Both the position numbers and the translations under genes were made by a program. 64,000 nucleotides of DNA, taken from assembly GCA_965219415.1 (NCBI GenBank), contig CBDCNP010000002.1:5248001-5312000 (forward strand), written 5' to 3'. The notes under the pieces are model-generated. The model had not been told where the DNA came from. It saw only the letters and a list, made by a program, of their open reading frames with translations, and did not search any database. This DNA is from Candidatus Marinacidobacterales bacterium (GTDB taxonomy: Bacteria; Acidobacteriota; Vicinamibacteria; Marinacidobacterales; DATDRI01). Position 1 is the first letter of the stretch; the number at the start of each line of letters is the position of its first letter. This document shows, piece after piece, positions 2,048 through 51,633 of the stretch.

Positions 2048-3001
2048 ATGACAGACTGGCTCGATAAGAAGATCACACCCATGCTGGCCTCCGCGGGCCA
2101 GCCCTTCGACTCCAGCAAGCATCTCTACGAGATCAAGTGGGACGGTATCAGGGTCCTCGCCTTCTTCGGAAAGGACCGGATTCGACTCCAAACGCGGCGC
2201 CATTTAAACACGACGCACCGATATCCAGAGATCGTCCGCGCTCTCAGGGACCTCCCAGGAGAAGGAATTCTGGACGGGGAGGTTGTCGTCTTCGACGGAG
2301 ACAAACCGAGCTTCGAACGGGCGCTCGAGCGCGAGCTGGTGTCCGACCCAACCCGGATCGCACAGCGCGTCCGCGACATCCCTGCGTATTACGTCGCCTT
2401 CGACCTTCTCTACCTGGACGGGCGCGTGCTCATAGAAGAGCCTCTGTCCGAACGGAAGCAAATTCTGTCGGAGCTGCTCACGGAAAGTCCGCCCAGACCC
2501 ATCATCGAGTCCGCCTACATTTTGGAGCGCGGAACCGCGTACTACCAGGAGGCTGCCGAACAGGGGCTGGAAGGCATCGTAGCCAAGACTCTCGACGGCC
2601 GTTACCTTCCAGGCAAACGCACGCGAGATTGGATCAAAATCAAAACCCGTCGCACGATCGATTGTGTCGTTTTGGGAACCGTCCTCAAGAAAGGCACGGG
2701 GCGAGTGAAGTCCTTAGTGCTCGGTGCCTACCGCAACGATGCGCTCATCTGGATCGGCAATGTTGGAAGCGGCTTGGATGGAAAGACTCTCCACGCGCTC
2801 AAGCAGGAGCTCGGTCCGCTCGAGAATGACCCTCCGAAGGGGCTCAAGGTGGTCGCCCCGGGCAACGTCTGTTGGCTTAGGCCCGTCCTCGTCGCCCGCG
2901 TCGAATACGCCGAGACGACCAGGGAAGGAAGGCTAAGGGCCCCGGTCTTCGTGGGATTCGTAGACTCGCCTCCCGAAAAGTGCATGGCTCCCAGCCACTG
3001 A
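2048..3001 (+). CDS. ligD: ATP-dependent DNA ligase, LigD ligase+OB domain only
   Basis: PMLA, YEIKWDGIR (adenylation Lys), LDGEVV, AFDLLYLDG, GLEGIVAK, YLPGKRTRDWIKIK, GRLRAPVF; adjacent to ku. Confidence 0.92.
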   Translation: MTDWLDKKITPMLASAGQPFDSSKHLYEIKWDGIRVLAFFGKDRIRLQTRRHLNTTHRYPEIVRALRDLPGEGILDGEVVVFDGDKPSFERALERELVSDPTRIAQRVRDIPAYYVAFDLLYLDGRVLIEEPLSERKQILSELLTESPPRPIIESAYILERGTAYYQEAAEQGLEGIVAKTLDGRYLPGKRTRDWIKIKTRRTIDCVVLGTVLKKGTGRVKSLVLGAYRNDALIWIGNVGSGLDGKTLHALKQELGPLENDPPKGLKVVAPGNVCWLRPVLVARVEYAETTREGRLRAPVFVGFVDSPPEKCMAPSH

Positions 3002-15753: not shown

Positions 15754-16953
15754 GGTGCTTCCGCCATGAAGTGTTGGTGGCTGCCGCGTAACCCGTTCGC
15801 GTGCTAGAGTTTGAACCAGAATTCTGAAGACACAGTTCTCTCATCGTCAGGGCCGAGCCGAAGTGAAGAATCGCAGATGTCTCAATCCCGTATGTCCGTC
15901 GTATGGAAAAGTCGGTTCCAGAAGCATTATTCACAACGGATTCTACAGAACGAGGTCCGGGAAACGCCGTCGATATCGGTGCGGCGAGTGCGGAAAGACG
16001 TTCTCTTCGACGAAAGGCACGCCCTACTACCGTCTCCAACATCGAAGAGCTACTTTCGATGGGGTCATCGCTCTCAGAGTCGAGGGTGTCAGCATTACTG
16101 CGATTTCCCGGATCAAAGGGATTGCCTGGAACACCGTCGCCCGCTGGCTCGAGAAGGCAGCCCAAGTGTGTCGTCGATTCAATCACAGAAGGATCGCCGG
16201 CTTCGCTGCCGAAGAGCTTCAAGCCGACGAGATTCGCACGTTCGCGGGCAACAAGAAGACGCCGAGTTGGGTCTTCGTTACGATCGAGGTCTGGTCTCGG
16301 CTCTGGCCATCGACGGTGACGGGAAGGCGAAGCTACCGGAACACTCACGCTCTGTTTCGCGACCTTTCGAGGCGGATGAATTTCGAGCGTCTTCCCTTGA
16401 TCGTCACGGATGGATTCGAATTCTACCAGAAGGTCATCCGTCGCTTCTTCGGTCCAGCGTGTCTCTACGGCCAGGTCCTCAAGACGCGCAGGAACGATCG
16501 TATCATCAAGGTCGAACGGAGAGCGCTGCACGGAGCCGCGTGGCGATTCGAAGACGCGCTCAATAACTCCGAGGACTCCTCAACATTGAACACGTCGTTC
16601 ATCGAGCGGTTGAATCTGACCATCCGGCAAAGCTCGGCATACCTTTCAAGACGAACACTTTCCCACGCTCGCTCGACGGAGAGGCTCGATGAGCACCTGG
16701 AGTTGCTCCGTTGCTATTACAACTTCGTCCGACCGCACGGAGCTCTGAAGTTCGGACGTGAGATCCGAACTCCGGCTATGCAAGCCGGTCTGACCACGCG
16801 ACGGCTCACCTTTCGAGACATCTTCTTGGCGACGACGATTCCTTTGTGGTTGCGGATCGAGGTTTTCCTGCTCACTAGGGCGCGCAACCCGGTCTCTTCC
16901 ACACCTGTACCACTGCCCGCAGCCGCGTAGCAACACTTGATGGCGGAAGCACC
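15754..16953 (+). mobile_element. Complete IS1-family element (1200 bp), no TSD
   Basis: TIRs GGTGCTTCCGCCATGAAGTGTTG / CAACACTTGATGGCGGAAGCACC. Confidence 0.92.
15863..16930 (+). CDS. IS1-family transposase (single ORF: Zn finger, HTH, DDE)
   Basis: C..P.C...RYRCGECGKTF, QADEIRTF, VTDG..FY, NTSFIERLNLTIRQ, YNFVRPH, TPAMQAGL. Confidence 0.9.
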   Translation: MKNRRCLNPVCPSYGKVGSRSIIHNGFYRTRSGKRRRYRCGECGKTFSSTKGTPYYRLQHRRATFDGVIALRVEGVSITAISRIKGIAWNTVARWLEKAAQVCRRFNHRRIAGFAAEELQADEIRTFAGNKKTPSWVFVTIEVWSRLWPSTVTGRRSYRNTHALFRDLSRRMNFERLPLIVTDGFEFYQKVIRRFFGPACLYGQVLKTRRNDRIIKVERRALHGAAWRFEDALNNSEDSSTLNTSFIERLNLTIRQSSAYLSRRTLSHARSTERLDEHLELLRCYYNFVRPHGALKFGREIRTPAMQAGLTTRRLTFRDIFLATTIPLWLRIEVFLLTRARNPVSSTPVPLPAAA

Positions 16954-34376: not shown

Positions 34377-35577
34377 GGTGCTTCCGCCATCAAGTGTTGC
34401 TACGCGGCTGCGGGCAGTGGTACAGGTGTGGAAGAGACCGGGTTGCGCGCCCTAGTGAGCAGGAAAACCTCGATCCGCAACCACAAAGGAATCGTCGTCG
34501 CCAAGAAGATGTCTCGAAAGGTGAGCCGTCGCGTGGTCAGACCGGCTTGCATAGCCGGAGTTCGGATCTCACGTCCGAACTTCAGAGCTCCGTGCGGTCG
34601 GACGAAGTTGTAATAGCAACGGAGCAACTCCAGGTGCTCATCGAGCCTCTCCGTCGAGCGAGCGTGGGAAAGCGTTCGTCTCGAAAGGTATGCCGAGCTT
34701 TGCCGGATGGTCAGATTCAACCGCTCGATGAACGACGTGTTCAATGTCGAGGAGTCCTCGGAGTTATTGAGCGCGTCTTCGAATCGCCACGCGGCTCCGT
34801 GCAGCACTCTGCGTTCGACCTTGATGATACGATCGTTCCTGCGCGTCTTGAGGACCTGGCCGTAGAGACACGCTGGCCCGAAGAAGCGACGGATGACCTT
34901 CTGGTAGAATTCGAATCCATCCGTGACGATCAAGGGAAGACGCTCGAAATTCATCCGCCTCGAAAGGTCGCGAAACAGAGCGTGAGTGTTCCGGTAGCTT
35001 CGCCTTCCCGTCACCGTCGATGGCCAGAGCCGAGACCAGACCTCGATCGTAACGAAGACCCAACTCGGCGTCTTCTTGTTGCCCGCGAACGTGCGAATCT
35101 CGTCGGCTTGAAGCTCTTCGGCAGCGAAGCCGGCGATCCTTCTGTGATTGAATCGACGACACACTTGGGCTGCCTTCTCGAGCCAGCGGGCGACGGTGTT
35201 CCAGGCAATCCCTTTGATCCGGGAAATCGCAGCAATGCTGACAACCTCGACTCTGAGGAGCGATGACCCCATCGAAAGTAGCTCTTCGATGTTGGAGACG
35301 GTAGTAGGGCGTGCCTTTCGTCGAAGAGAACGTCTTTCCGCACTCGCCGCACCGGTATCGACGGCGTTTCCCGGACCTCGTTCTGTAGAATCCGTTGTGA
35401 ATAATGCTTCTGGAACCGACTTTTCCATACGACGGACATACGGGATTGAGACATCTGCGATTCTTCACTTTGGCTCGGCCCTGACGATGAGAGAACTGTG
35501 TCTTCAGAATTCTGGTTCAAACTCTAGCACGCGAACGGGTTACGCGGCAGCCACCAACACTTCATGGCGGAAGCACC
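34377..35577 (-). mobile_element. IS1-family element, copy 2 (1-nt frameshift), no TSD
   Basis: Both TIRs; near-identical to 15754-16953. Confidence 0.92.
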
Positions 35578-37919: not shown

Positions 37920-38124
37920 TATGATTCCGAAACGCCCTGGCGCGTGGGTCTTGAGTGCGTTTGTATTTTTGGACACGACGCGCGTAGCAACACTTGATGG
38001 CGGAAGGCACCAAACGGGGAGAAACAGATAGGCCGCGCCTACGGAGCACCGCGCCAGCCCTCGACCCTACCGGGGTTGCTACGTTTCTACCATCGGGAAG
38101 CCGCATGAGTATTTTGACCTCACG
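37920..38124. mobile_element. Concatenated termini: type A end, IS1 right TIR, group II intron 3' stub, type C end
   Basis: 37920-37980, 37981-38011, 38012-38070 and 38071-38124 each match longer copies elsewhere in the window. Confidence 0.8.
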
Positions 38125-38439
38125 GCCGTACGTTCGCCACCTCGACTGGAGACGTGACGCTGACTGAGCGGGGTTCTGAATGGCCCCACAAGCGCGGCGC
38201 TACCACCCCGTCGTGTCCAAGAACACGAACGAGCTCAAGACCCGCGCTCACGATGACGCCACAGACCCGGGAGTAGAAAACGGCGCGTCTGTGAATCGGT
38301 GCGTCACCTGCTGACTCGGCTGCCCATCGGCACCGCGAGGTGCTTCCGCCATCAAGTGATGGAATGGACTCCTCCACTGACATAGACGGCATCGATGTGC
38401 CAAAGTCAGTCGAATACGCATCGAAAAGGAGGAGTCCGA

Positions 38440-39471
38440 ATGAAAGATACGACAATCGCTGTGGATCTTGCAAAGAACGTCTTCGAGATTGCCATCTCGG
38501 GAGAAGCGGGGAAGGTGTCCAAGCAACTCCGTGTGAGTCGACCCAAATTGGTGTCGTTCTTTGCCAAACAGAGCGCTGCCACCGTGCTTCTCGAAGCCTG
38601 CGGCTCGGCTCACTTCTGGGCAAGGACGTTCCGAAGGTTGGGACACGACGTCGTCCTGCTCCCACCTCACCTCGTGAGGCCGTATCGACGCGGGAGCAAG
38701 AACGACCGCGCCGACACGAAGGCGTTGCTCGAGGCCTACAGGAACGAGGAGCTTCTTCCCGTACCCATCAAGTCCGTGCACCAGCACACCCTCGCTGCGC
38801 TCCATCGCCTGCGCTCAGGATGGCTCTCCACACGGACCGCACGCATCAATGCCGTACGCGGGCTCCTGCGCGAACTCGGATTCATCATCCCAAAGGGCGC
38901 TCACTTCGTCGTGCCCGCCCTCTTCGAACTCGTCGAAGACGCTGATTCTGATTTGCCCGACGTGCTCCGTTCGCATCTCCGTGATGCCTGCTCCGAGATT
39001 CGAGAACTCAAGGACAAGTGCGCTAGCATCGAGCACGAGCTCAAGGCGCTCACCAAGCAGCTTCCTGAAGTCCAACGACTTCTCGCCATTCCCGGCATCG
39101 GACTTCTGGCCGCGACCGCCATCGTGGGCTTCGTCGGCGATCTTCGCCGCTTCCCATCGGGGCGCCGCTTCTCGAGCTACCTCGGCCTAGTTCCCAAGGA
39201 AAACTCCAGTGGCGACATTCGCCGCCTCGGACGCATCACCAAGCGTGGCGACTCCTACCTCCGTATGCTCCTCACCCAGGGCGGGCGCGCCGTGCTCCGC
39301 GCGGCGAACGTCAGCAAGAGCCCGCCCGACAAGCTCCGCGCCTGGGCTCGGAAGGTCCACCGCTCGCGGGGACACAACAAGGCCGTGATTGCTGTCGCCA
39401 ACAAACTCGCCCGGATCGTCTGGGCCGTCTCCACCCGCGAGAGTGAATTCCAGTCGCCGGTGGCCGCTTAG
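38440..39471 (+). CDS. IS110/IS1111 DEDD recombinase
   Basis: AVDLAKNVF, LEACGSAHFW, KNDRADT, IPGIG, YLGLVPKENSSG (catalytic Ser region), GRITKRGDSYLR, AVANKLARI; RBS AGGAGG. Confidence 0.96.
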   Translation: MKDTTIAVDLAKNVFEIAISGEAGKVSKQLRVSRPKLVSFFAKQSAATVLLEACGSAHFWARTFRRLGHDVVLLPPHLVRPYRRGSKNDRADTKALLEAYRNEELLPVPIKSVHQHTLAALHRLRSGWLSTRTARINAVRGLLRELGFIIPKGAHFVVPALFELVEDADSDLPDVLRSHLRDACSEIRELKDKCASIEHELKALTKQLPEVQRLLAIPGIGLLAATAIVGFVGDLRRFPSGRRFSSYLGLVPKENSSGDIRRLGRITKRGDSYLRMLLTQGGRAVLRAANVSKSPPDKLRAWARKVHRSRGHNKAVIAVANKLARIVWAVSTRESEFQSPVAA

Positions 39472-39519
39472 ATTTAGAGGCTCCACTTTCGTGTTTTCCT
39501 TTTTCCCTTCCAAAAGAGG

Positions 39520-39700
39520 CTGCGACGATACCCATCCAACTGATGGCGTACCGGTCGGACCGGCGCGGGGTCAAGCCAATAGCAACACTGGCCCTAAGAG
39601 GTCGTTCAAAGTGATTGGCTCCTCGCGCGCGGATTTTCCATCATGGCCCGGAGCACCCAAGACGCTCCTCACTGAGGCCGAAGATACGTTTGCAGTCTGA
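39520..39700 (+). ncRNA. Predicted bridge/seek RNA (boundaries approximate)
   Basis: Internal-loop guides match target (39580-39589, 39609-39613) and donor junction (39636-39644, 39682-39688). Confidence 0.85.
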
Positions 39701-39803
39701 CCCACTCGTCACGACGCGATGGATGCGCAGCTTCGATGGAAGATTTATTAAGAAAGGGGCGTGACTAGAAAGAAAGGGGCTTGACTAGAGGAGTCCAGAT
39801 ATG

Positions 39804-40462
39804 TTGCTACACGGCTGCGGGCAGTGGTACAGGTGCGGAAGAGACCGGGTTGCGCGCCCCAGTGAGCAGGAAAACCTCGATCCGCGACCACAAAGGAATC
39901 GTCGTCGCCAAGAAGATGTCTCGAAAGGTGAGCCGTCGCGTGGTCAGACCGGCCTGCATAGCCGGAGTTCGGATCTCACGTCCGAACTTCAGAGCTCCGT
40001 GCGGTCGGACGAAGTTGTAATAGCAACGGAGCAACTCCAGGTGCTCATCGAGCCTCTCCGTCGAGCGAGCGTGGGAAAGCGTTCGTCTCGAAAGGTATGC
40101 CGAGCTTTGCCGGATGGTCAGATTCAACCGCTCGATGAACGACGTGTTCAATGTCGAGGAGTCCTCGGAGTTATTGAGCGCGTCTTCGAATCGCCACGCG
40201 GCTCCGTGCAGCGCTCTCCGTTCGACCTTGATGATACGATTGTTCCTGCGCGTCTTGAGGACCTGGCCGTAGAGACACGCTGGCCCGAAGAAGCGACGGA
40301 TGACCTTCTGGTAGAATTCGAATCCATCCGTGACGATCAAGGGAAGATGCCCGAAATTCATCCGCCTCGAAAGGTCGCGAAACAAAGCGTGAGTGTTCCG
40401 GTAGCTTCGCCTTCCCGTCACCGTTGATGGCCAGAGCCGAGACCAGACCTCGATCGTAACGA
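39804..40462 (-). pseudogene. IS1-family copy 3, 3' half
   Basis: Matches about 16275-16933; complements 49091-49613. Confidence 0.9.
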
Positions 40463-41548
40463 GCAGCCTTTAACCAAGACATGGTGGGAGCGAAGCTCAG
40501 CCTAGGTCCACGCTCGGCGATACTGGGCCAGACCCCCTTCTCCCTACGGAGTTTTGTGAACGACGTCGCGGTGAGTGTTTTCGAGACGGTGCGCAAGGGC
40601 AATACGGCTTTCCCGTTCACGCGCGGCGATACGGACGAAGGGGCCTTCCTGCGGCCGATGGTTGCGACGCTTGGCACTCGCGAGCCTTTTTGGGCGATGG
40701 TGGTCCCGGCTTTCGGCAATACCGATCACTTGGTCTTTAACGATGGACGGGTTGGAGTCCCAGCGGTGTCCCTAGACAACTGGCCGGATCCGTATATCCA
40801 TTCCAGTGACGACGATCTTTGGCAAGTCGACCCGACTCAACTCGAGAGAAACGCCTTCGTCGTGGCCGCGACGGCTTACACCGTCGCTTCGTTGGGAGAG
40901 CCCCACGTCGACCGCCTCGCGGTCTTGCTGCAGGGAGGGGCGCAGACAAGGCTAGGACGAGACGGGGCGTCGGCGCTGGCGCGTCTCGTAGACGACTCGG
41001 CCGGATCCATTTCCTCTCGGTACAAGGATGCCGAGATGCTCCTCTCGGTGTCCACCGCTCGAGAGATCGCTACCATCGATTCCGCGCTGGTCCTGGTTTC
41101 CCCCGGCGGTGCCGGTGAGAGGCTGTTGAAGCAAGTCCGGGCACGGGTGAGCAACCTCGGTCGGACGCTTCAAGAAGACGTGGGTGCGTTCTACGAGGAG
41201 CGAACCGGCCAAGCTCCCAGGAGCGAGCGTTCCCCCCATGAAAAGGCGGCGGCCGAGAGAGTGCCGGAAAGGACGATGTCCCTAGCGGAGAGTTTGGAAA
41301 AAATGATGCGGAGAGGAGGCCCGGGTGCTGACATCGAAGGGTTGCATCGTCTTTATCAAACCGAGGTGCGCAACCTGGTTGATGGAAAACGGACCGTGCT
41401 CGATATCTACCGAACGGTGAGGGCGGCCTCACTCTCGGCCGGCGAGTGGTACTACAGTCCGGTCGAGCTCGACGATGTGGTCGCGGTGCTCGAAGCTTCC
41501 GAGAAGGCGGGCGCTATCCGCTTTAGAGGCGGTGATAGTAATCAGTAA
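40463..41548 (+). pseudogene. M28-family peptidase, C-terminal half
   Basis: AAFNQDMVGA, TDH.VF.D..VGVP.V, YIHSSDD...VDPTQL.R. Confidence 0.8.
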
Positions 41549-41602
41549 GCAGTAGTCAGTGATCAGTACTGATAACTGATTACGGTTCAATGAACACTGA
41601 TT
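41540..41602. repeat. Heptamer tandem repeat with central inversion
   Basis: aatcagt aagcagt agtcagt gatcagt | actgata actgatt acggttc aatgaac actgatt. Confidence 0.75.
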
Positions 41603-41675
41603 TCCTCGTATAGACGGAGGGGTCCACCTGAAGGTCTCTCTCAGGGGACTTGCAGAGACTCGGTTGGATTAGTCT

Positions 41676-41981
41676 CTATTCTTCGGACGTGCTCGAAGCA
41701 CTCGCCGCAGGGCCGCTCTTTGAGCGGTTCTTTTCAGATTTGGCTGTTTTAGAAGTGCTGTCGGAGTCAGAGTTTTCGTTCTTACTCGATGAAGGCTGGC
41801 CTTTGCGGGCGTAATCGGTGACGTACCACCCGGTCCCTTTGAATTGAATTGCAGGGGAGGATAAGAGCCGTTCGACCTTACCTTCGCACTTCACGCACGA
41901 CGTGAGCGGCGAGTCGGCCACCTTCTGTAGCATTTCGAAACGGTGGCTACAACTTTGGCACTCGTATTCATAAAGAGGCAC
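41676..41981 (-). CDS. FmdB-family zinc-ribbon protein
   Basis: (M)PLYEYECQSC.HRFE.LQ...C..C.G.VERLLS...IQFKGTGWYVTDY. Confidence 0.92.
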   Translation of the reverse strand: MPLYEYECQSCSHRFEMLQKVADSPLTSCVKCEGKVERLLSSPAIQFKGTGWYVTDYARKGQPSSSKNENSDSDSTSKTAKSEKNRSKSGPAASASSTSEE

Positions 41982-42122
41982 AAAAATAACTATACCACTT
42001 GGGGGCGGATCGGTCAACCTCTTGAACCGTAAGGTGTTATGAAGAGGTGCCTTAGCCTGGCGCCCGCGCGGCGTCAACCGATCGTGGAAAACACGCTAAA
42101 CTCTAGCCGTGAGGGACCTTAC

Positions 42123-42614
42123 CTACCAGGTGCCGAGCAGTCGTCGCACCACGACCAGCTCACCCAGGTGGTAAGCATTGTGATCGGCCAACACCAATAT
42201 CTCCCGCAAGACAGTTTGCCCGTCTCCATGCGGGATGGGATCGTAGAGGTCGGTCGCTGGGTTCTGGATGAATTCTCGAAACGCTTCGAGATCCGCCTGA
42301 AAGAGGCCGACGCTTTTCTCCCAAGACCCCGGCTCCGGTGGCGACGCGTCTTCCGGCCAGTAGCCGGCAGGGAAATTGGGGGACGCGTGTTTGGGATTCC
42401 GACTGAACTCCGAAATGTCCCACTGCGCGATCCGCAGATGCTCCAAGATCTCCCAGGGAGTGTGCGATGCTCCTTGCGGTTTTTCTCCCTGACGCTCCAA
42501 AGGAAGGTCGGAGACGGCAGTGTCGAAATCCACATGCGCCTGTTTCCCGGCGAGGAGCTTGACGAGGTGTTCTCGAAGCATCCGGTCTTCACTTGAAGGG
42601 CTCATCCGTTCCAC
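42123..42614 (-). CDS. DinB-family protein
   Basis: AHVDF, TPWEILEHLRIAQWDI, LREILVLADHNAYHLG. Confidence 0.88.
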   Translation of the reverse strand: MERMSPSSEDRMLREHLVKLLAGKQAHVDFDTAVSDLPLERQGEKPQGASHTPWEILEHLRIAQWDISEFSRNPKHASPNFPAGYWPEDASPPEPGSWEKSVGLFQADLEAFREFIQNPATDLYDPIPHGDGQTVLREILVLADHNAYHLGELVVVRRLLGTW

Positions 42615-42635
42615 CTCCCTGACATTTCACCAATC

Positions 42636-43247
42636 TTACGAGAGTTCGACTCGCCCTTTGACTGTGTCGAGAGTCGCATGGAGCCCTTCGGTGTCACCCT
42701 CTCGGACATCGACGCCCAATCGAAATGTGGCGAGAAACGCCCTTACGTTTTCGGGACGACGAGCTTCGATCTCCAGCCGAACCAAATTACACCCTTTGGG
42801 CGCATCTTGGCCAGGATGAACCATACCTTCCCATTCGATGAATCCTGGAACATGAGGAAGCAAACCCCGACCCTCGATAGTTGCGAAACTCCAGCGGAGC
42901 ACCGTTCCGTTCGGCTTGCGGCGGGACTCGGTAACCTTGGTGATCGGATAACCGTGTTCCTTGCCTCGCACGACGAGCTCTTCCATGTCATCGACACGGG
43001 CGACCCAGCTAATGAGGCAGGCCTCGTGAAGCTCCGTTAGTCGGGCCGCCAGATCGGAAACGTTTTCTTGTTCGGGATCGGGTGCAATGATTTCCAAATA
43101 ACGACTCTCCCCGAGGGAGAGAAGAGCGTTCCGGGTTCCGAGGCCGGGATGGCTTCCTCCGGGGGCCGCCCGAACTCCGGTCCGCTCCGCGATCTCTTCG
43201 ATCCCGCGCTCGAGGTCATGGGTTCCCCAAATAAGATGGTCTAGCAC
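42636..43247 (-). CDS. VOC/glyoxalase-like protein
   Basis: LDHL......L..G, GGSHPGLGTRNALLSLG..YLEIIAPDP, P.FIEW. Confidence 0.9.
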   Translation of the reverse strand: MLDHLIWGTHDLERGIEEIAERTGVRAAPGGSHPGLGTRNALLSLGESRYLEIIAPDPEQENVSDLAARLTELHEACLISWVARVDDMEELVVRGKEHGYPITKVTESRRKPNGTVLRWSFATIEGRGLLPHVPGFIEWEGMVHPGQDAPKGCNLVRLEIEARRPENVRAFLATFRLGVDVREGDTEGLHATLDTVKGRVELS

Positions 43248-43306
43248 AAGGTTATGTTAGCCGGATCGGCCTCGGTCTTCAGATTAGTGCGCGCGGGGCC
43301 CCACCG

Positions 43307-43410
43307 CCGCCTGGCTAGCTATAGATTGGCACCAACCTATTTTGGCGGCAAGCGGGAACTGAGTGCCCGCCTGGCTAGCTTGTGTCAAAGCAACCACCTA
43401 CTTTGGCGGC
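43307..43410. repeat. Two about 44-bp REP-like units, 60-bp period
   Basis: CCGCCTGGCTAGCT-N20/21-TTTGGCGGC twice. Confidence 0.7.
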
Positions 43411-43468
43411 CGACACGGCTGGCATGGGTTCATGCCTGCGCTCGGGCCTCACGGGCCACTATTACATT

Positions 43469-44535
43469 CTAACTTCGCGTCGCCGCGTTGTCTCGGGCTC
43501 GCCTTGCAAGCGTCGTACCCACCAGCGCGCCCACCGCGCCCGCCAGGAAGCCGGCCGGAACATCGATCCCGTGATGGTAGCGAGTGTACACGCAGGCGAG
43601 ACTCATACCTGCGGCAAAAAAGCCAAGCACGAAAGAGGCGCGCCGATGAAACGGCGCCAAGCCGAAGACCATTCCCCAACTGGCCGCAACGTGCGAACTG
43701 GGGAAGCAACCGCCCGAAACCGCGCCTCGTTCGATGATCCATTCGATAATCGGCGTAAAAGCGATGCCCTCGAACGGCTTGAGCCCCGCCATCAATTCTG
43801 GGTTCTCCCAGGGCCCCCCGGGCGGGAAGCCAGGGATACCAGATGAAACAAAGAAAAAAGGCAAGCATCATGGAAGTGATGGCGCCTTCGAACCCAGGAC
43901 CGGGCTCACCTTTTGTGCCTTTGGGCCCGAACCACGCGACCGTCACGCCGCCGATGAGAATCAAGTAATACGAAAAGTAAAAGCCGTACAGGATCTCATC
44001 CTGGGGTAGCCCGACCCAGCCCGACATCAGGAGCGCGGGCAGGTCGCCGAACAGCCACTGGTCCGCCGCATAGAGCTTCGGCTCGAACCAGTAAGGCGAC
44101 CCGGGGGCGATCGCGTTGACCGTCTGCTGGACTTCCTCGAAGTAGAGCACGACCAGGAGCAACGGATAGCTGTATCGGAGGAACCGGGCGCCTCCGCGAA
44201 CCATCTTCCGCCATATCGGCTCACTCGGTGGTGCCAGCTCCCAACGCGCCCCGCGCGGGGGAAGAATGAAGACCACGAACACCACCAGAGCGTGCAGTGC
44301 GAGAATGGGTAAGGGGTCGGCGATGTTGTTATAGCAAGCAAGGACGAGCAAGGCGGTCACCACCGTGTAGAGAATGACCGCGCCGTTCAACGCCGTCCAT
44401 GGTTGAATTCCTTTCCATCGAGTCTGCACGGATTCGTCGATCCTCGAAACTTCGGAGTCTACTATAGCGAAACCGCTCTGGGCTCTTTCACGCGCCAGGC
44501 GGTTCGTTTGTTGCGGCAAAGGCAGATCCTTCATC
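43469..44535 (-). pseudogene. PAP2/AUR1-like phosphatase (one frameshift near 43815; start uncertain)
   Basis: YFSYY, PARGP, CFPSSHVA, RYHHGID split over two frames. Confidence 0.8.
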
Positions 44536-44707
44536 ACAACCTCCCCGACCCCGGGTCTTGAACCTACCGGGGCGCGAATGTCTTCGAATATCCGGGCGGA
44601 TAGAGTCCTATCCGTTCGGATAGCGTCGTTAGTCAATCCGGTGAAACTTGAGCCGCGCTAAACGCTGGCCTGTTCGTCCGGCGACGAACTACGTTGCAAG
44701 CGCTATG

Positions 44708-45796
44708 CTGCCTTGGTGCACAATTCGCGATCTCGGTTCACAATTGTCCTGTACTCGCGGATACGAGGTTCCCCATGAGCATTTTCAAACGCACTCAGCG
44801 GAAGTATGTGAAGAAGGCCTATCGCGTGAGGAATTGGCGTGAATATGAGGCGGGTCTACGCAACCGCGGGAGCCTGACCGTCTGGATCTCGCTCACCGCC
44901 GGCAAGCTTGTGAACTGGGACGCGCCCCGGCCAAGGAGGAGGAAACCGGGCCGTCAACGCAAATACTCGAACCACGCCATCGAGACGGCTGTCACCCTGG
45001 GCATGGTGTTTCATCTGTCATCTAGGCAGAGCGAGGGATTGCTGCGGTCGTTGTTCGCTCTGATGAAGCTAGACAATGATGTGCCCGATCACACCACGAT
45101 CTCGAGGCGCAAGCCGAAGCTGGGTAAGGTCCCCTTCTACCCAGTCAAGCAGAAGACGCCGTTGCACATCTTGTTCGACAGCAGCGGTCTCGCTGTCCAC
45201 GCCGGCCAGCTGCGCAGAGCACAAAAGAGCAGGGACTATCGCAAGCTCCATCTGTGTGTCGACGAGCAGAGTGGCGAAGTCGTCGCCGGCGAGCTGACGA
45301 GCAAAAGAGCCCGCGATTCATCGCGGGTTGCATCGCTTGTCGGACAGATCGACAGTCCCATCTCATCGGCCAGAGCTGACACCGCATACGACGCCGGCGG
45401 CGTCTATGAGGCAATCGAGAATCACAGCGCTCATCGCTCGCCGAGGGTGCTGATACCGCCGCGCAAGGGCGCCCTGCTCGCATCGGGGCCGGCGAGCAGC
45501 CGACAGCGCAATCGCAACATTGCAGCACAAGCTCGGCTCGGCAAACGAAAGTGGCACACAGAATCGGGCTACAGCAAACGGAACAAAGTCGAGACAACGT
45601 TCCATCGCTACAAGGCTATCGTGGGCTCAGCGATGCGAGCGAGAGGGTTGGCGGCACAGAGAGGTGAGGCAAGGATCGGGTGCAAGATTCTCAACACCAT
45701 GACGGCGCTCGGGATGCCTGATAGCGAGATGATCGGATGATGGGAGTCGGAGCCAAGCGAGCTCTCGGCCTCTATCGGAGTTGTGCACCAAGGCAG
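44708..45796 (+). mobile_element. IS5-family (IS903-like) element, no TSD
   Basis: TIR CTGCCTTGGTGCACAAYTC at both ends. Confidence 0.9.
44775..45740 (+). CDS. IS5-family transposase
   Basis: YRVRNWREYEAGLRNRGSLTVW, PDHTTISRR, DSSGL, RKLHL, ADTAYD, GYSKRNKVET. Confidence 0.92.
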   Translation: MSIFKRTQRKYVKKAYRVRNWREYEAGLRNRGSLTVWISLTAGKLVNWDAPRPRRRKPGRQRKYSNHAIETAVTLGMVFHLSSRQSEGLLRSLFALMKLDNDVPDHTTISRRKPKLGKVPFYPVKQKTPLHILFDSSGLAVHAGQLRRAQKSRDYRKLHLCVDEQSGEVVAGELTSKRARDSSRVASLVGQIDSPISSARADTAYDAGGVYEAIENHSAHRSPRVLIPPRKGALLASGPASSRQRNRNIAAQARLGKRKWHTESGYSKRNKVETTFHRYKAIVGSAMRARGLAAQRGEARIGCKILNTMTALGMPDSEMIG

Positions 45797-45968
45797 GTCG
45801 AGGCCACCAATTAGGTTGAGCAAAGTGCTCTTTCCCGAGCCCGAAGCCCCATCAACGCCAGGAACTCGCCATCCGGGATATTCAGGTCGAGCCCCTCCAG
45901 CACGTGGATCTCCTCCGAGCCACGGCGGAAGTATTTCGTGACTCCTTTGACTTCAACTAGATTCCCAT
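45797..45968 (-). pseudogene. ABC transporter ATPase N-terminal stub
   Basis: MGNLVEVKGVTKYFRRG..EIHVL.GLDL.I..GEFLALMG, GKSTLLNLIGGLD; cut at IS5 end. Confidence 0.8.
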
Positions 45969-45977
45969 TGCTTGCAC

Positions 45978-47192
45978 TCATCGACTGCGCTCCTCTACCC
46001 GTTCTCCATCTGCCAGTTCGTCTGGTCCTTCTACCACCACGCTCTCTCCGGGCGAGATCCCGGAAAGAACCAGCGCTTCCCCGTCTTCAATCGTTCCCAG
46101 CCTCACCGCGCGTCGCTCGACCTGTCCATCACGAACGACGAAGACCACGTCTCGACCTTCGTCGCGGCTAACGGCTCCCTTCGGAATCCTGACCGCGCTG
46201 CCACCGGCTTGCTCCGCTTCGTCGCCCTGGAATGCCACCTTGACTCCCATGTCCGGAAGAACGCGCGGATCGAGCTCGTCAAACCCAATGCGCACTCGCA
46301 CGGTCGCGCGATCGCGATCGGCGGTCGGGACGATGGCGATGACGTGACTCGGAATGCGCCAGGTTGGGTAAGCGTCGAGCGTAGCTTCGACCGTTTGCCC
46401 CGCTTGAACACGATTGATGTAGCTCTCGTTGACGTCGACCTCGATCTCGAGTGAACTCATGTCGACAACGGTCCCGATCCCGGTCCGGGTGAACCCTCCG
46501 CCGGCCGAGACCGGAGAGATCATCTCGCCCGGCTGTGCATTTTTGGTGGTGACGACGCCGTCGAAGGGCGCGCGGATGATCGTATCTTCCAGCTGTTGAT
46601 TCCACACCGCAATGCGTCTCTCCGCGACCGTTTCTTCTTCGCCCTGTCTCGCCATGCGCGCCTCGATGACGTCGACGCTGGCCTGCACCCGATCGAGCTC
46701 CGCTTGACTGACCACCGAATCCGCGACGAGCGCCTTGGTCCGATCGAGATTCAGATTCGCTTCGGCGAGCCGGACTTTCGTTTCCTCGAGTGCGGTTTTG
46801 ACCGCTACCAGCTCCGCGCGAGCCAGCCGAAAGCTGGCATCGACGTTGGTGGTGTCGAGACGCGCCAGGACTTGGCCTTCCTCGACGACCATGCCTTCTT
46901 CGATCAGCACCTCGAGAACCTTGGCCGTCACTTTGGAGGAAACGGTTGCCCGCCGACGCGCCGTCACATAACCGGATGCGTTCAGCACCGTCTGGCCCTC
47001 GCCGAGCTGAACTTCCTGTGCCAGCGCGGTAATCACTTCCGCTCCCATCGCCCGCGTCATCCACCATACGAGGGCCGCGACGACGAGGAACGCGCCGAAG
47101 AGCGCGAACCAAAGCCAGGATCGCGATAGATCTTCTACAATCGAAGAACGATCGATTCGCAAATCGTCAAGCGAGGATTTTCTCTCGGTCAT
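45978..47192 (-). CDS. Efflux periplasmic adaptor (MFP/MacA-like)
   Basis: LNASGYVTARR.ATVSSK, IRAPFDGVV, EIEVDVNE, LPDMGVKV. Confidence 0.92.
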   Translation of the reverse strand: MTERKSSLDDLRIDRSSIVEDLSRSWLWFALFGAFLVVAALVWWMTRAMGAEVITALAQEVQLGEGQTVLNASGYVTARRRATVSSKVTAKVLEVLIEEGMVVEEGQVLARLDTTNVDASFRLARAELVAVKTALEETKVRLAEANLNLDRTKALVADSVVSQAELDRVQASVDVIEARMARQGEEETVAERRIAVWNQQLEDTIIRAPFDGVVTTKNAQPGEMISPVSAGGGFTRTGIGTVVDMSSLEIEVDVNESYINRVQAGQTVEATLDAYPTWRIPSHVIAIVPTADRDRATVRVRIGFDELDPRVLPDMGVKVAFQGDEAEQAGGSAVRIPKGAVSRDEGRDVVFVVRDGQVERRAVRLGTIEDGEALVLSGISPGESVVVEGPDELADGERVEERSR

Positions 47193-47299
47193 GGCGGGCA
47201 CCGTCCAATCTTTCATCATAGCGATTCGCCAGAATGGGCGCCAGGAACGAATACCGGCGACTTCTGCCAAGAGTTTCCGGCCAAGCGCCTTACCCTTTA

Positions 47300-48790
47300 C
47301 CGCGAGACGACGTCGCTCGTCGTAGGCTGCTATCGCCTACTTGCTCGAAGAGAACAGAGTCCTCAAGGCTCGGCTTTGCGGGAGGAAGCTTCGTCTCACA
47401 GAAGTTCTGCGAGTTCGTGGTGGAATGGCGAAGTCGAATCCGAGGTGGGGGTATACACGCATTCGCGGCGCCTCTCGAATCTCGGCGATACCGTAGCCAG
47501 GAGCACCATCGCCAATATTCTGCGGGAACATGGCATCGAGCCCGCGCCGGATAGAGGTGAGCGGACGCCGTGGCGCACGTTTCTCGCCGCCCATTGGGGA
47601 ACCGTTGCTGCGACTGACTTCTTCACCATTGAGATCGCCACGGTCCGCAGGCTTGTGACCTACCATGTGCTCGTCGTCATCGAGCTGTCTTCGCGAAAAG
47701 TACACATTGCTGGAATCACTCCCCGGCCGGACGGCGCGTTCATGATGCAGGTCGGTCGGAATCTCACCAACCCCGTCCTGTGCCAAAACTCGGCCCTTTT
47801 GAAATAGGCCATAAATCAGCAACTTAGTGTCTGTGTTTGCGACCGGGCCAAGGGCCGTGGGCTTTACAATCGTCTTGGGCGGGCGGGTCGTCACCATGCA
47901 GATGATCACCTAGTCGAGAGCGAATATCGAAGCGTGTGCCTGAAGCTGTTTCCACGCTACGCTGGTCGAGCGCACCGAGGGGCTACCGTCGCCGGCGACC
48001 ATCTACGCGGCACGGCAGTAGTAGTTGAGAATGCCCCCAAGTCGCTCTCGCGACACGATGGGGCCAGCGTGTCATTCGCGCTTGCCGGCAGAGGTGTGAG
48101 GAGCTCGTTGCCGAGACCTTGGTGGTTCCGTTCTGTGTGATAGTGCACTACGTATTCGGTTACCGCTGTGCGCAGGTGTCGCTCACTGAGAGGTACGAAG
48201 CGGTCGAGACACTCTCGACGTATGGAGAGAACGAATCTTTCCGCATATGCGTTCAGATTCGAACTATTCGCGGGAAGGCGAAGGGGCTTCACGCCTGATT
48301 GTTCGGCGCGATCTTGTGGCCCAGGTTGGCCATAGCTCCTTGGATTCGAGCGTAGCCCCAAGACGGGCTCGACTTGGCCATGCGCACGACCAACTCCTCG
48401 ATTTCCGACGAGATGGGCGGACGCCCCGTTTGACGACGAGGGTACGTCCATTTCCTCGCGATGAGCTCACGGTGCCATCGGAGAAGCGTATCCGGGGTGA
48501 CCAGAGTTGCCACTTCCCCGAGGAGTTTCCGTCCAAGCTCTTTCCCCTTGGCCGCAAGCCGTCGACGCTGCTCGTCGCTCAAGCGCAACCGCTGACCGAG
48601 CTGCGCCTTCAAAACACGGTTCTCCTCCTGCAGATACTCAAGGATCTTCTGCTGCTCCTGGTTCAGCCAACCGGCCAGGAGCGAGACCAGGAAGATTTGT
48701 GGCGAGACAAATGGGCTCATCGCAAGCATCGTAGCCGAAGTCACTTACGGCTGCGAAAGATGACCGGCTGAGTTTTTGCACCATAAGAGG
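47300..48790. mobile_element. Cluster of rve-family fragments in both orientations with type D and other termini
   Basis: 47300-47770 (+) core, 47771-48296 (-) C-terminus and end, 48297-48790 (-) N-terminus. Confidence 0.8.
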
Positions 48791-48829
48791 TCAGCCATTT
48801 GCTCCGGGCCGTGCAACAACGCCTTCCGT

Positions 48830-48908
48830 AGGCCCTTTCAGGCCGTGTTTAGCGACGCGGAAGGTTACTCCGCCTTTACTTCATTTCCACACCTTTTGAG
48901 GGTAGCTC
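48830..48908 (-). mobile_element. Solo left end of the IS256 found at 25106
   Basis: GAGCTACCCTCAAAAGGTGTGGAAAT...GGCGGAGTAACCTTCCGCGTC. Confidence 0.8.
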
Positions 48909-49090
48909 TTGCAACAACATCTGCGGGTACCCTACGCCATACAATTAGATTTTCTGGAGGCGCAGGAGCTGTTAGTAGTGTTACCTGCAAGCGTGCTCCC
49001 TCGTCACTAAATGCAATGCCTTTTCGCCATAATGCCTTTGGCTCGCGAGCGGCTCGACTCGGACCCTTCATGTTGGCCCGTACAGCGACC

Positions 49091-49613
49091 GGTGCTTCCG
49101 CAATTAAGTGCTGGCGGCCAACCCCTAACCCGTCTGCGTGCTAGAGTTAGAGCCAGAATTCTGAAGACACAGTTCTCTCATCGTCAGGGCCGAGCCGAAG
49201 TGAAGAATCGCAGATGTCTCAATCCCGCATGTCCGTCGTATGGAAAAGTCGGTTCCAGAAGTATTATTCACAACGGATTCTACAGAACAAGGTCCGGGAA
49301 ACGCCGTCGATACCGGTGCGGCGAGTGCGGAAAGACGTTCTCTTCGACGAAAGGCACGCCCTACTACCGTCTCCAACATCGAAGAGCTACTTTCGATGGG
49401 GTCATCGCTCTCAGAGTCGAGGGTGTCAGCATTTCCTCGATTTTCCGGATCAAAGGGATTGCCTGGAACACCGTCGCCCGCTGGCTCGAGAAGGCAGCCC
49501 AAGTGTGTCGTCGATTCAATCACAGAAGGATCGCTGGCTTCGCTGCCAAAGAGCTTCAAGCCGACGAGATTAGCACGTCCGCGGGCAACAAGAAGACGCC
49601 GAGTTGGGTCTTC
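49091..49613 (+). pseudogene. IS1-family copy 3, 5' half
   Basis: Left TIR and transposase up to TPSWVF. Confidence 0.9.
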
Positions 49614-50552
49614 CAACATGCGCTCGGCGGCATCCGGGTTTTCGGCAAAATACTGGTAGGGCGCGCGGATCTCGTCCACCCACCAGAAACGAATGTCTCT
49701 TCGCGGACGAGGGAGCTTCCCTTCCTCGATCAAACGAGCGAGGCTACGGCCGATCTCGAGAAGACTGGCTCAACCCGAACGATTGTCGTTGGCCGAAGGT
49801 TTTTCTTCCTGGAGGTGCGCGACCAAGACAACTGCTGGTTGGCTCGGGTCGGTCCCTCGAATCCAACCTTCGACGATTCCTTTGGTCGACTCGCCGAATT
49901 CGGCATCGATGTTGACCTTCACCTCGATCGGTTCATCGGCCCGATCGAGCTTTTCGCGTAGTCTCTCGCCCTCACGCTCCGTGAGAATCCAGGCGAATGT
50001 GCTTGGGCTCTTGGTTTCTGGTGCTTGCTCAGAGATCCCGCGCCAGGGCATTTGGTCGGGATAGGCTCGACGTCGACTGCCGTAGCTGATGACGCCCGCC
50101 GCTCCCCGCTCCCAAACCGCCATACGGTGCACCGTACCCGGTTCTCCGGAAGCGAAAACAACCTTGTCCTTCACCTCTTGGCCTTCGTAGTCGGAATCCT
50201 TCATCCCCTCGCCGACATCCACCAGCGCAGCGGTCACTTCGGTCGAATGAGAATTGACCGCGACACGCAACGGCGTCTCGCGCACGTCACCGAGATTCAG
50301 CTCGAAGGGAGACAAGATACGAGCTTCACCGCTGCGGATGGTCCATCCTCTCGTAGGTTTGTTCAACGAGAGTGTTTCGACATCTTGGAGCCCAACCTCT
50401 TCCGCCGTGGCCGCTACCCACTTCGCGGAAAGACGAAACCAGACACGGAAGCCATAAAGCAGTTTAGCGGCATGATTCGACCGGATTACATAGATGTACA
50501 TCGTCTCCCGCTGTACCGCACCCAGAGAGGGGTTCAACACCGCTGTCCGCAT
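49614..50552 (-). pseudogene. M28-family peptidase with PA domain, N-terminal half (in-frame TGA at 49770)
   Basis: LVDVG.G....DY, GAAGVI, AHLQE..PSANDNRSG*ASLLE, IRFWWVDE. Confidence 0.8.
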
Positions 50553-50700
50553 GGCGCGCCGCCCGATTCGTCGGGGGGGGAGCGGACGGCAGCGGGTGCA
50601 ACCATGGTGAGCTCGACTGAGCGTCTCGACGCGTCGTACCAGTTTAGTTGGGGGAGTCGCTCATTGGAGGTCGCCAAACTCCGTTAACGGAGGCTTCCGG

Positions 50701-51633
50701 ATGGCAAGAACCAGGAAGGATTTGATGAGTGTAGTTGGCATTGCGAAGGACGTGTCCCTCGAGCAGGTGCCGACGAGTGAGCGTCCAAAGAAAAGCTCGG
50801 GGGGTAGATCCGCTTCCTTCCGTCGAGCTCCTGCGTGGCAGGTGGTGGCGCTGATCAGCATGTCGTTTCTCCTCCTCATAACCATCGGGGTGGCGTTCTA
50901 CGCGTTTCATCGGGTCGGCGAGCTGAATCAAGAACTTGGGCTGAGCGTGCATCGAGTAGAGCAAAAGCTTCAGAGTCTCGATGCCGGCATCAGCTTCGAT
51001 TCCAAAAGACAGCAACTCTTGATCGGGATCCGTGATGAAATCATGAAGGCCAACCCGAGAGTCAGTCTCAATCAGGCCTACGAGTACTCGCGGCTCATAC
51101 TGCAGGCATCCGACAAATATCCCGCCGTGGACCCGCTCATTTTTCTCGCGGTGGAGATAGTCGAAAGCGGTTACAACCCATCGGCCACCAGCCACGCGAA
51201 CGCCAAGGGTCTCTATCAGATATGGCCTTCCACCGGACGGATGCTGGCCCGAACGCTCAACTGGGAGTACTCCGACAAAATGCTGTACGACCCGGAGAAG
51301 AACACGGAGATGGCCGCTCTCTATTTGGACATACTTTTCACCGCTTACAACGATGAACGGATGGTGCTCGCCGAGTACAACGGTGGACCACTCAACGCCG
51401 GGTATCTTCGCGCCGGCAGCAGTCGAGCGGCGGCGGAGACACGGGACTATGTCATGAAAGTCGGGGATGTCTACGATCGCCTCCAAAACAAGTTCGAACG
51501 AGGCATCGACGTCCGCCTCGAGCCCATGCACCGTGACGGAGAGCGGGATGGGAAACTACTCGGTCGGCAGAGCCAAACGGCCAAGAAGAGCTATCGCGAA
51601 GTCGCGGACGCTGCGGCGTCGGGAATGCGATAG
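50701..51633 (+). CDS. Membrane-anchored lytic transglycosylase (SLT domain)
   Basis: VDP..LA...VESGYNP.A.S...AKGLYQI, LYDPEKN, LAEYNGG, ETRDYV. Confidence 0.92.
   Translation: MARTRKDLMSVVGIAKDVSLEQVPTSERPKKSSGGRSASFRRAPAWQVVALISMSFLLLITIGVAFYAFHRVGELNQELGLSVHRVEQKLQSLDAGISFDSKRQQLLIGIRDEIMKANPRVSLNQAYEYSRLILQASDKYPAVDPLIFLAVEIVESGYNPSATSHANAKGLYQIWPSTGRMLARTLNWEYSDKMLYDPEKNTEMAALYLDILFTAYNDERMVLAEYNGGPLNAGYLRAGSSRAAAETRDYVMKVGDVYDRLQNKFERGIDVRLEPMHRDGERDGKLLGRQSQTAKKSYREVADAAASGMR

Follow-up and report, generated by a model that had tools for sequence, protein, structure and literature searches.

A 9.15-kb inversion with reciprocal, repeat-free junctions splits an IS1-like element and an M28 peptidase gene in a Candidatus Marinacidobacterales bacterium

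The window analysed here is a 64,000-nucleotide (nt) stretch of the genome of a Candidatus Marinacidobacterales bacterium (G000:C3:5248001-5312000; assembly of 8.05 Mb in three contigs, C1, C2 and C3). Within it, a 9.15-kb segment (40463-49613) separates the two halves of an IS1-like insertion sequence (IS) as well as the two halves of a gene for an M28 peptidase. The N-terminal half of the IS1-like element (49091-49613, +) starts with the left inverted repeat, corresponds to reference coordinates 4-528 and scores 50.4 bits against NF033558 for the half alone. Its C-terminal half (39803-40462, -) covers reference coordinates 527-1187 with 98.2% identity to a full copy. The C-terminal half of the peptidase gene (40463-41548, +) matches PF04389 with 26.5 bits (cut-off 21.3) and is 91% identical to the ortholog in G001, a same-genus genome in a single contig used for comparison. 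The N-terminal half (49614-50438, -) corresponds to codons 65-343 of that ortholog and, taken alone, was assigned no family in the profile search. The G001 ortholog is intact and encodes 701 amino acids (aa), of which residues 65-343 match 50438-49614 (-) and residues 345-661 match 40466-41419 (+). At the left junction (40462|40463, within 40461-40464) the interior of the IS is joined to peptidase codon 344, and at the right junction (49613|49614, within 49612-49615) it is joined to codon 343.

Taking the reverse complement of 40463-49613 in silico rejoins both interrupted genes, in agreement with the earlier proposal of a 9.15-kb inversion splitting an IS and an M28 peptidase gene. The restored IS is colinear end to end with 10/10 aligned full copies, and its sole gap relative to them consists of 2 extra nt (TC) located exactly at the join, where the two halves overlap by TC; the duplication of about 2 nt noted previously is thereby confirmed. 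The genome contains 46 occurrences of a 15-mer spanning the uninterrupted IS site and 0 of the version carrying the extra TC. The peptidase halves likewise rejoin in frame, as had been claimed, and the DNA alignment to the intact G001 ortholog is gap-free at the join. The net change is therefore +2 nt with no loss, and both junctions are reciprocal and exact to the base. Base 49613 is compatible with either partner, IS or peptidase, so that the gain can be read either as 2 nt of IS combined with a blunt cut in the peptidase gene or as 1 nt at each site. We conclude that the inversion is real, arose from two breaks, is exact to the base and bears the signature of end joining: a clean but ordinary repair scar of a known kind.

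The split element belongs to a large population. It is about 1.2 kb long with terminal inverted repeats of about 20 nt, and a BLAST search with a full copy returned 110 pieces of at least 88% identity, 33 of them full length and 77 partial, all located on C3 and C2. Two full copies lie inside the window (15754-16953 and 34377-35577). The intact 355-aa transposase finds its best NCBIfam match in NF033558 (84.5 bits), below the curated cut-off of 100, and the Pfam family DDE_Tnp_IS1 gives 22.1 bits, below 24.1. The element is for this reason named IS1-like: the earlier label IS1 agrees with the best match but falls short of the curated threshold. On its outer side the C-terminal half is interrupted by an IS110-family element (38359-39802, +; transposase open reading frame (ORF) 38395-39471; NF033542 302.6 bits, cut-off 140) nested in the right inverted repeat, whose outer remnant follows at 38339-38358 (-), with 38339-38356 an exact match to the inverted-repeat pattern. 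The same junction between IS110 and right inverted repeat is found in four other full-length IS1-like copies, near C3:4605405, 4686061, 4719843 and 4885699, and the nested IS110-family element thus seems to target the right inverted repeat of IS1-like elements.

No homology was found that could have brought the two break sites together. The 80-nt flanks of both breaks have copy number 1, and 0 of the 16 inverted-repeat pairs found in 38000-51500 touch a breakpoint. The nearest such pair is 14 nt long and lies about 560 nt and about 260 nt from the two junctions. Between the break sites, inverted matches at near-equal offset reach 3 nt at most. The breakpoints are thus free of repeats, as first described, and homologous recombination is ruled out by this absence of homology.

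The break in the IS falls at reference coordinate 527/528, in the interior of the element as originally stated and not at its ends, and neither junction carries an IS terminus. To our knowledge, the explanation given for an inversion in bacteria is, with few exceptions, recombination between inverted repeats or the action of a dedicated invertase. The locus resembles IS-mediated inversions, whether by recombination of inverted copies or by intramolecular replicative transposition, in its IS-rich genome, its kb-scale segment and the IS at one breakpoint. In those inversions, however, each junction retains an entire IS or one of its ends, whereas here the interior of an IS is joined to a unique gene. 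An IS-mediated inversion was accordingly rejected based on the interior position of the IS break, the single-copy peptidase side and the lack of an IS end at either junction.

Two length-conserving routes were weighed against the same junctions. In the first, a serine or tyrosine invertase, or the RNA-guided recombinase of the neighbouring IS110-family element, would have inverted the segment on a 2-nt core. An IS110-family element does lie 660 nt from the left break, and the duplicated unit is indeed a dinucleotide, inverted at the two junctions. Conservative site-specific recombination is nonetheless ruled out by the net gain of 2 nt, since such an exchange cannot add them and the ancestral peptidase gene would have to have carried 2 extra, frame-breaking nt. 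The G001 peptidase gene lacks these 2 nt and the halves found here are in frame without them. Further, inverted recognition sites are absent and the dinucleotide flanking the nested IS110-family element is TG, not TC, all of which makes this route extremely unlikely. In the second, subunits of a topoisomerase (gyrase) would have been exchanged between two cleavage complexes. Gyrase subunit exchange is a classical source of reciprocal illegitimate recombination that needs no homology, and it proceeds with a 4-nt stagger and conserves length. The gain of 2 nt seen here disagrees with both features, and we regard a gyrase-mediated event as highly improbable.

Comparison with G001 provides polarity. 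There, the N-terminal half of the peptidase gene, its C-terminal half and the four genes downstream form one colinear run that continues into the right flank of the window. Since G001 carries the un-inverted order on the peptidase side, the present order in the window is the derived one. The synteny check suggested in the preliminary description therefore gave the expected result on the peptidase side but found no colinear counterpart on the IS side: neither the left flank nor the region at 44.7-49.1 kb has one in G001, and the left flank maps to scattered places or nowhere. A metagenome scan returned 2 short contigs of 87-90% identity, neither of which reaches the break.

Public sequencing data were used to assess whether the inverted order exists in cells. 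At least half of the sampled words of the stretch are present in 6 of the 22 public runs listed, and four runs (X15, X16, X1 and X2) were compared with the stretch as contigs rather than reads. Two contigs of X15 (40433-43312 and 49584-50106) cross the two junctions with 0 differences. X15 may be the source of the assembly itself, and its contigs are for that reason not independent proof. No junction-crossing contig is among those listed for X16, X1 and X2, where the uncovered part proves nothing. Joints to the opposite strand at 40460/49613 and 40462/49611 (depth 16-919) originate from other, intact IS copies and are uninformative for the locus. An assembly artefact, with the inversion absent from cells, would be in keeping with the location of the segment in the most repeat-dense region of the assembly, with an estimated genome contamination of 8.45% and with support that comes from contigs and not from long reads. 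Against it stand the single-copy sequence on one side of each breakpoint, the reciprocity of the event down to the base and the presence of both junctions in X15 contigs, and we consider an artefact very unlikely.

The best reading of the locus, to which we assign a probability of roughly 60%, is that two double-strand breaks were followed by fill-in of short overhangs and rejoining of the flipped fragment by non-homologous end joining (NHEJ). The ancestor would have carried an intact IS1-like copy and, about 9.15 kb away on the chromosome, an M28 peptidase gene. Of the two double-strand breaks, one would have hit the IS within its transposase gene and the other would have separated peptidase codons 343 and 344. 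The 5' overhang then filled in would have been short, amounting to 2 nt (TC) at an IS break paired with a blunt break in the peptidase gene or to 1 nt per break, after which the released fragment would have been flipped and religated by Ku and LigD. Fill-in of the overhang before joining explains why the same dinucleotide is now found in inverted orientation at both junctions. This interpretation builds on reciprocal junctions with 2 added nt and no homology, on the un-inverted order in a relative and on intact genes for Ku and an NHEJ ligase. We infer from these that the breaks were simultaneous, that they carried 5' overhangs and that Ku/LigD acted as the joiner. The original suggestion of two simultaneous breaks joined end to end, in place of transposition or homologous recombination, is hence supported by the reciprocity and by the lack of homology and of an IS terminus; the breaks were presumably simultaneous, and a transposase-type reaction discussed below keeps a small share of the probability.

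The end-joining genes lie inside the window and outside the inverted segment. An intact Ku gene (1088-2002, +) matches PF02735 with 166.2 bits, above the cut-off, and TIGR02772 with 290.5 bits (cut-off 150), and contains no stops. It is followed by an intact gene for an NHEJ-type ATP-dependent DNA ligase (2048-3001, +; TIGR02779 243 bits, cut-off 227.75), likewise free of stops. The two genes are adjacent and about 38 kb away from the inversion; elsewhere, the genome also encodes a LigD polymerase domain (C3:2727002-2727739).

The proposed mechanism has precedents. In mycobacteria, NHEJ is documented to fill in 5' overhangs in a templated manner according to the accessible part of PMC4176160, and the locus shares with that system the templated fill-in, the homology-free joining and a window that encodes Ku and an NHEJ ligase. 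The portion of that article available to us scores a single induced break and gives no description of a 9-kb fragment being released and reciprocally inverted in nature, in which respect the two cases differ. For the Drosophila melanogaster group, a model in which staggered breaks, fill-in and NHEJ leave an inversion flanked on either side by an inverted duplication is laid out in the accessible part of PMC1885836. As in that model, repeat-free breaks, 5' fill-in and end joining would here have left an inverted duplication that marks the derived arrangement. Going by the same excerpt, the duplications of the Drosophila model range from tens of bp to whole genes in a eukaryote. The 2 nt observed here would represent the model at its smallest scale, in a bacterium whose end joining would depend on two proteins, Ku and LigD.

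Several observations weigh against two breaks and end joining. The presence of Ku/LigD shows only that the route is available and does not tie it to this event, and a transposase would likewise produce a target cut with a 2-nt stagger. The putative ancestral state on the IS side is deduced from other IS copies. The X15 contigs that cross the junctions extend exactly 30 nt into the IS half, one below the 31-nt bridging rule, and the depths of the two contigs differ (11.5 vs 2). Contigs of X16 start exactly at 40463 and 49613, and X1 has one contig edge at 40463. A reach of 30 nt is what a 31-mer graph would be expected to give if the words at the junction are present and the word after them also belongs to other IS copies. 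Base 49613 is the last base common to the inverted and the ancestral form, and the breakpoint edges in X16 and X1 may mean that another, ancestral arrangement coexists there, i.e. that the inversion is polymorphic. No contig with the ancestral join is among those listed for X16 and X1.

The main rival reading is a transposase-type intramolecular strand transfer, in which the DNA would have been cut flush at the peptidase gene, as at a junction of abutted ends, and the two resulting 3' ends joined to a 2-nt staggered target in the IS1-like copy, with inversion of the DNA in between and duplication of the target dinucleotide. One blunt site paired with one site bearing a 2-nt duplication fits the geometry of donor and target, the genome is crowded with active-looking IS families, and one full IS1-like copy adjoins a partial copy at reference coordinate 532, near this break. 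Words of 8-14 nt were counted at the four break ends, and those of 10-14 nt at the peptidase ends occur in the genome at chance level, so that these ends resemble the terminus of no multi-copy element. Nor was an IS with a consistent 2-nt target duplication found in the flanks of IS1-like or IS5-like copies. IS1 target duplications are 8-9 bp; among the 33 full IS1-like copies listed, the flanks of the 26 with both ends located show no consistent target-site duplication, and those of the IS5-like copies show none either. With the census of IS5-like and IS110-like elements described below also lacking a complementary split pair, strand transfer is an unlikely origin of the inversion.

Replication-based template switching, i.e. 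fork stalling or microhomology-mediated break-induced replication, could in principle have made both junctions, as it is able to yield inversions without long repeats, and at the right junction the nascent end matches 4 of the last 6 nt of the peptidase template. Microhomology amounts to 0 at the left junction and to at most 1 nt at the right, and such switching does not normally yield a product that is cleanly reciprocal, has lost nothing and carries a templated duplication of 2 nt, which leaves this explanation quite unlikely.

It is also conceivable that the two cuts were non-random, with a sequence-directed nuclease of the restriction type, cutting about 10 nt from an asymmetric site, freeing the fragment and end joining re-inserting it flipped. 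The lead for this proposal is a common 7-mer, CTCGGCG, which at each ancestral break lies about 10 nt away, in the same direction and on the same strand (40473-40479 region in flipped order; 49623-49629). A direct 7-mer at near-equal offset is found in 2.65% of 20,000 random pairs and in 4.9% when either orientation is allowed; having been noticed post hoc, the match does not count as evidence, and we hold nuclease-directed cutting to be decidedly improbable. If it were true and recurrent in the genome, self-restriction followed by Ku/LigD repair would add to the IS load a way of shuffling the genome that does not depend on repeats.

How often such events occur was assessed through a census of internal breaks in IS pieces. 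The 68 internal breaks of IS1-like pieces include 56 that adjoin multi-copy DNA (nested insertions) and 12 with low-copy flanks, 2 of the 12 being the event described here. Internal breaks with low-copy flanks number 4 of 29 for IS5-like and 1 of 6 for IS110-like elements, and these 29 and 6 breaks contain no complementary split pair. A single further complementary IS1-like pair was identified (C3:4279259 and C3:4528949, 250 kb apart on the same strand). One half ends at reference coordinate 988 and the other starts at 986, giving a 3-nt overlap (CGC), and both are joined to low-copy DNA. The search for the exchange partner of this pair was negative, in that the flanks form no joint open frame and have no counterpart in G001. 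The second pair would be another product of the putative nuclease, were that proposal correct. With only one further pair, the event is rare rather than systematic.

Under the end-joining interpretation, a repeat-free natural inversion with a templated 2-nt fill-in represents useful, if modest, evidence, suggesting that in nature, too, the chromosome structure of a bacterium with Ku/LigD is shaped by end joining. For annotators, the locus is a warning that, in IS-dense genomes, half an IS beside half a gene need not mean an insertion or a deletion.

The inversion is probably without fitness consequence, given that one of about 33 IS copies was lost and that the peptidase gene also carries a stop codon and a 5' deletion; no functional consequence is evident, as both broken genes are dispensable or were already decaying. 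The stop codon is an in-frame TGA at 49770-49772, in the N-terminal half, that replaces a TGC (Cys) of G001, and in a split, 5'-truncated peptidase gene a plain nonsense mutation is the simpler reading. The 5' deletion of about 3.3 kb relative to G001 has left a scar at 50439-50493 and removed the first 64 peptidase codons together with a neighbouring 690-aa ORF, which has no tblastn match in the G000 genome. Because homology ends at 50438, the ATG at 50552, taken earlier as the start of the peptidase gene, is not its true start. Judging from these sequence features, the peptidase gene was, or later became, a pseudogene by other routes too. No repeat was found at the ends of the deletion, which adds a second illegitimate junction to the locus, about 830 nt away from the breakpoint of the inversion.

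Apart from the peptidase half, the inverted segment carries four genes on the minus strand (41676-44636) that are colinear with G001 in synteny blocks 40465-43246 and 43479-44708. They encode an FmdB zinc-ribbon protein (41676-42077, -; TIGR02605 65.2 bits), two proteins without an NCBIfam match (42123-42614, - and 42636-43247, -) and a membrane protein (43449-44636, -). The latter gene is frameshifted relative to an intact 353-aa ortholog in G001 and was recovered by tblastn as two pieces in different frames. An IS5-family element follows (44709-45796, +; NF033579 230.4 bits, cut-off 140), with terminal inverted repeats of 19 nt and 29 full copies in the genome. Next to it lies a gene for an efflux periplasmic adaptor, also known as membrane fusion protein (45978-47270, -; TIGR01730 186.2 bits, cut-off 94.9), which was not found in G001, where only repeat-sized matches were obtained. 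The remainder of the segment up to the IS1-like half is a mosaic of repeats and IS fragments (47300-49090) with 3 to about 170 copies in the copy-number profile. It contains pieces of an integrase-core transposase on both strands, and many alternative joints are seen for it in the public runs.

Within the assembly, repeats are densest in the last 1.5 Mb of C3, which includes the window: there, 20-27% of 24-mers are present in at least 5 copies. Repeat density is 2-6% at the start of C3 and climbs to the above values in its final 1.5 Mb, and C1 (2.07 Mb) contains zero IS1-like copies. In the 6.3-Mb G001 genome, matches to the repeats of G000 are mostly located within about 140 kb around its coordinate origin.

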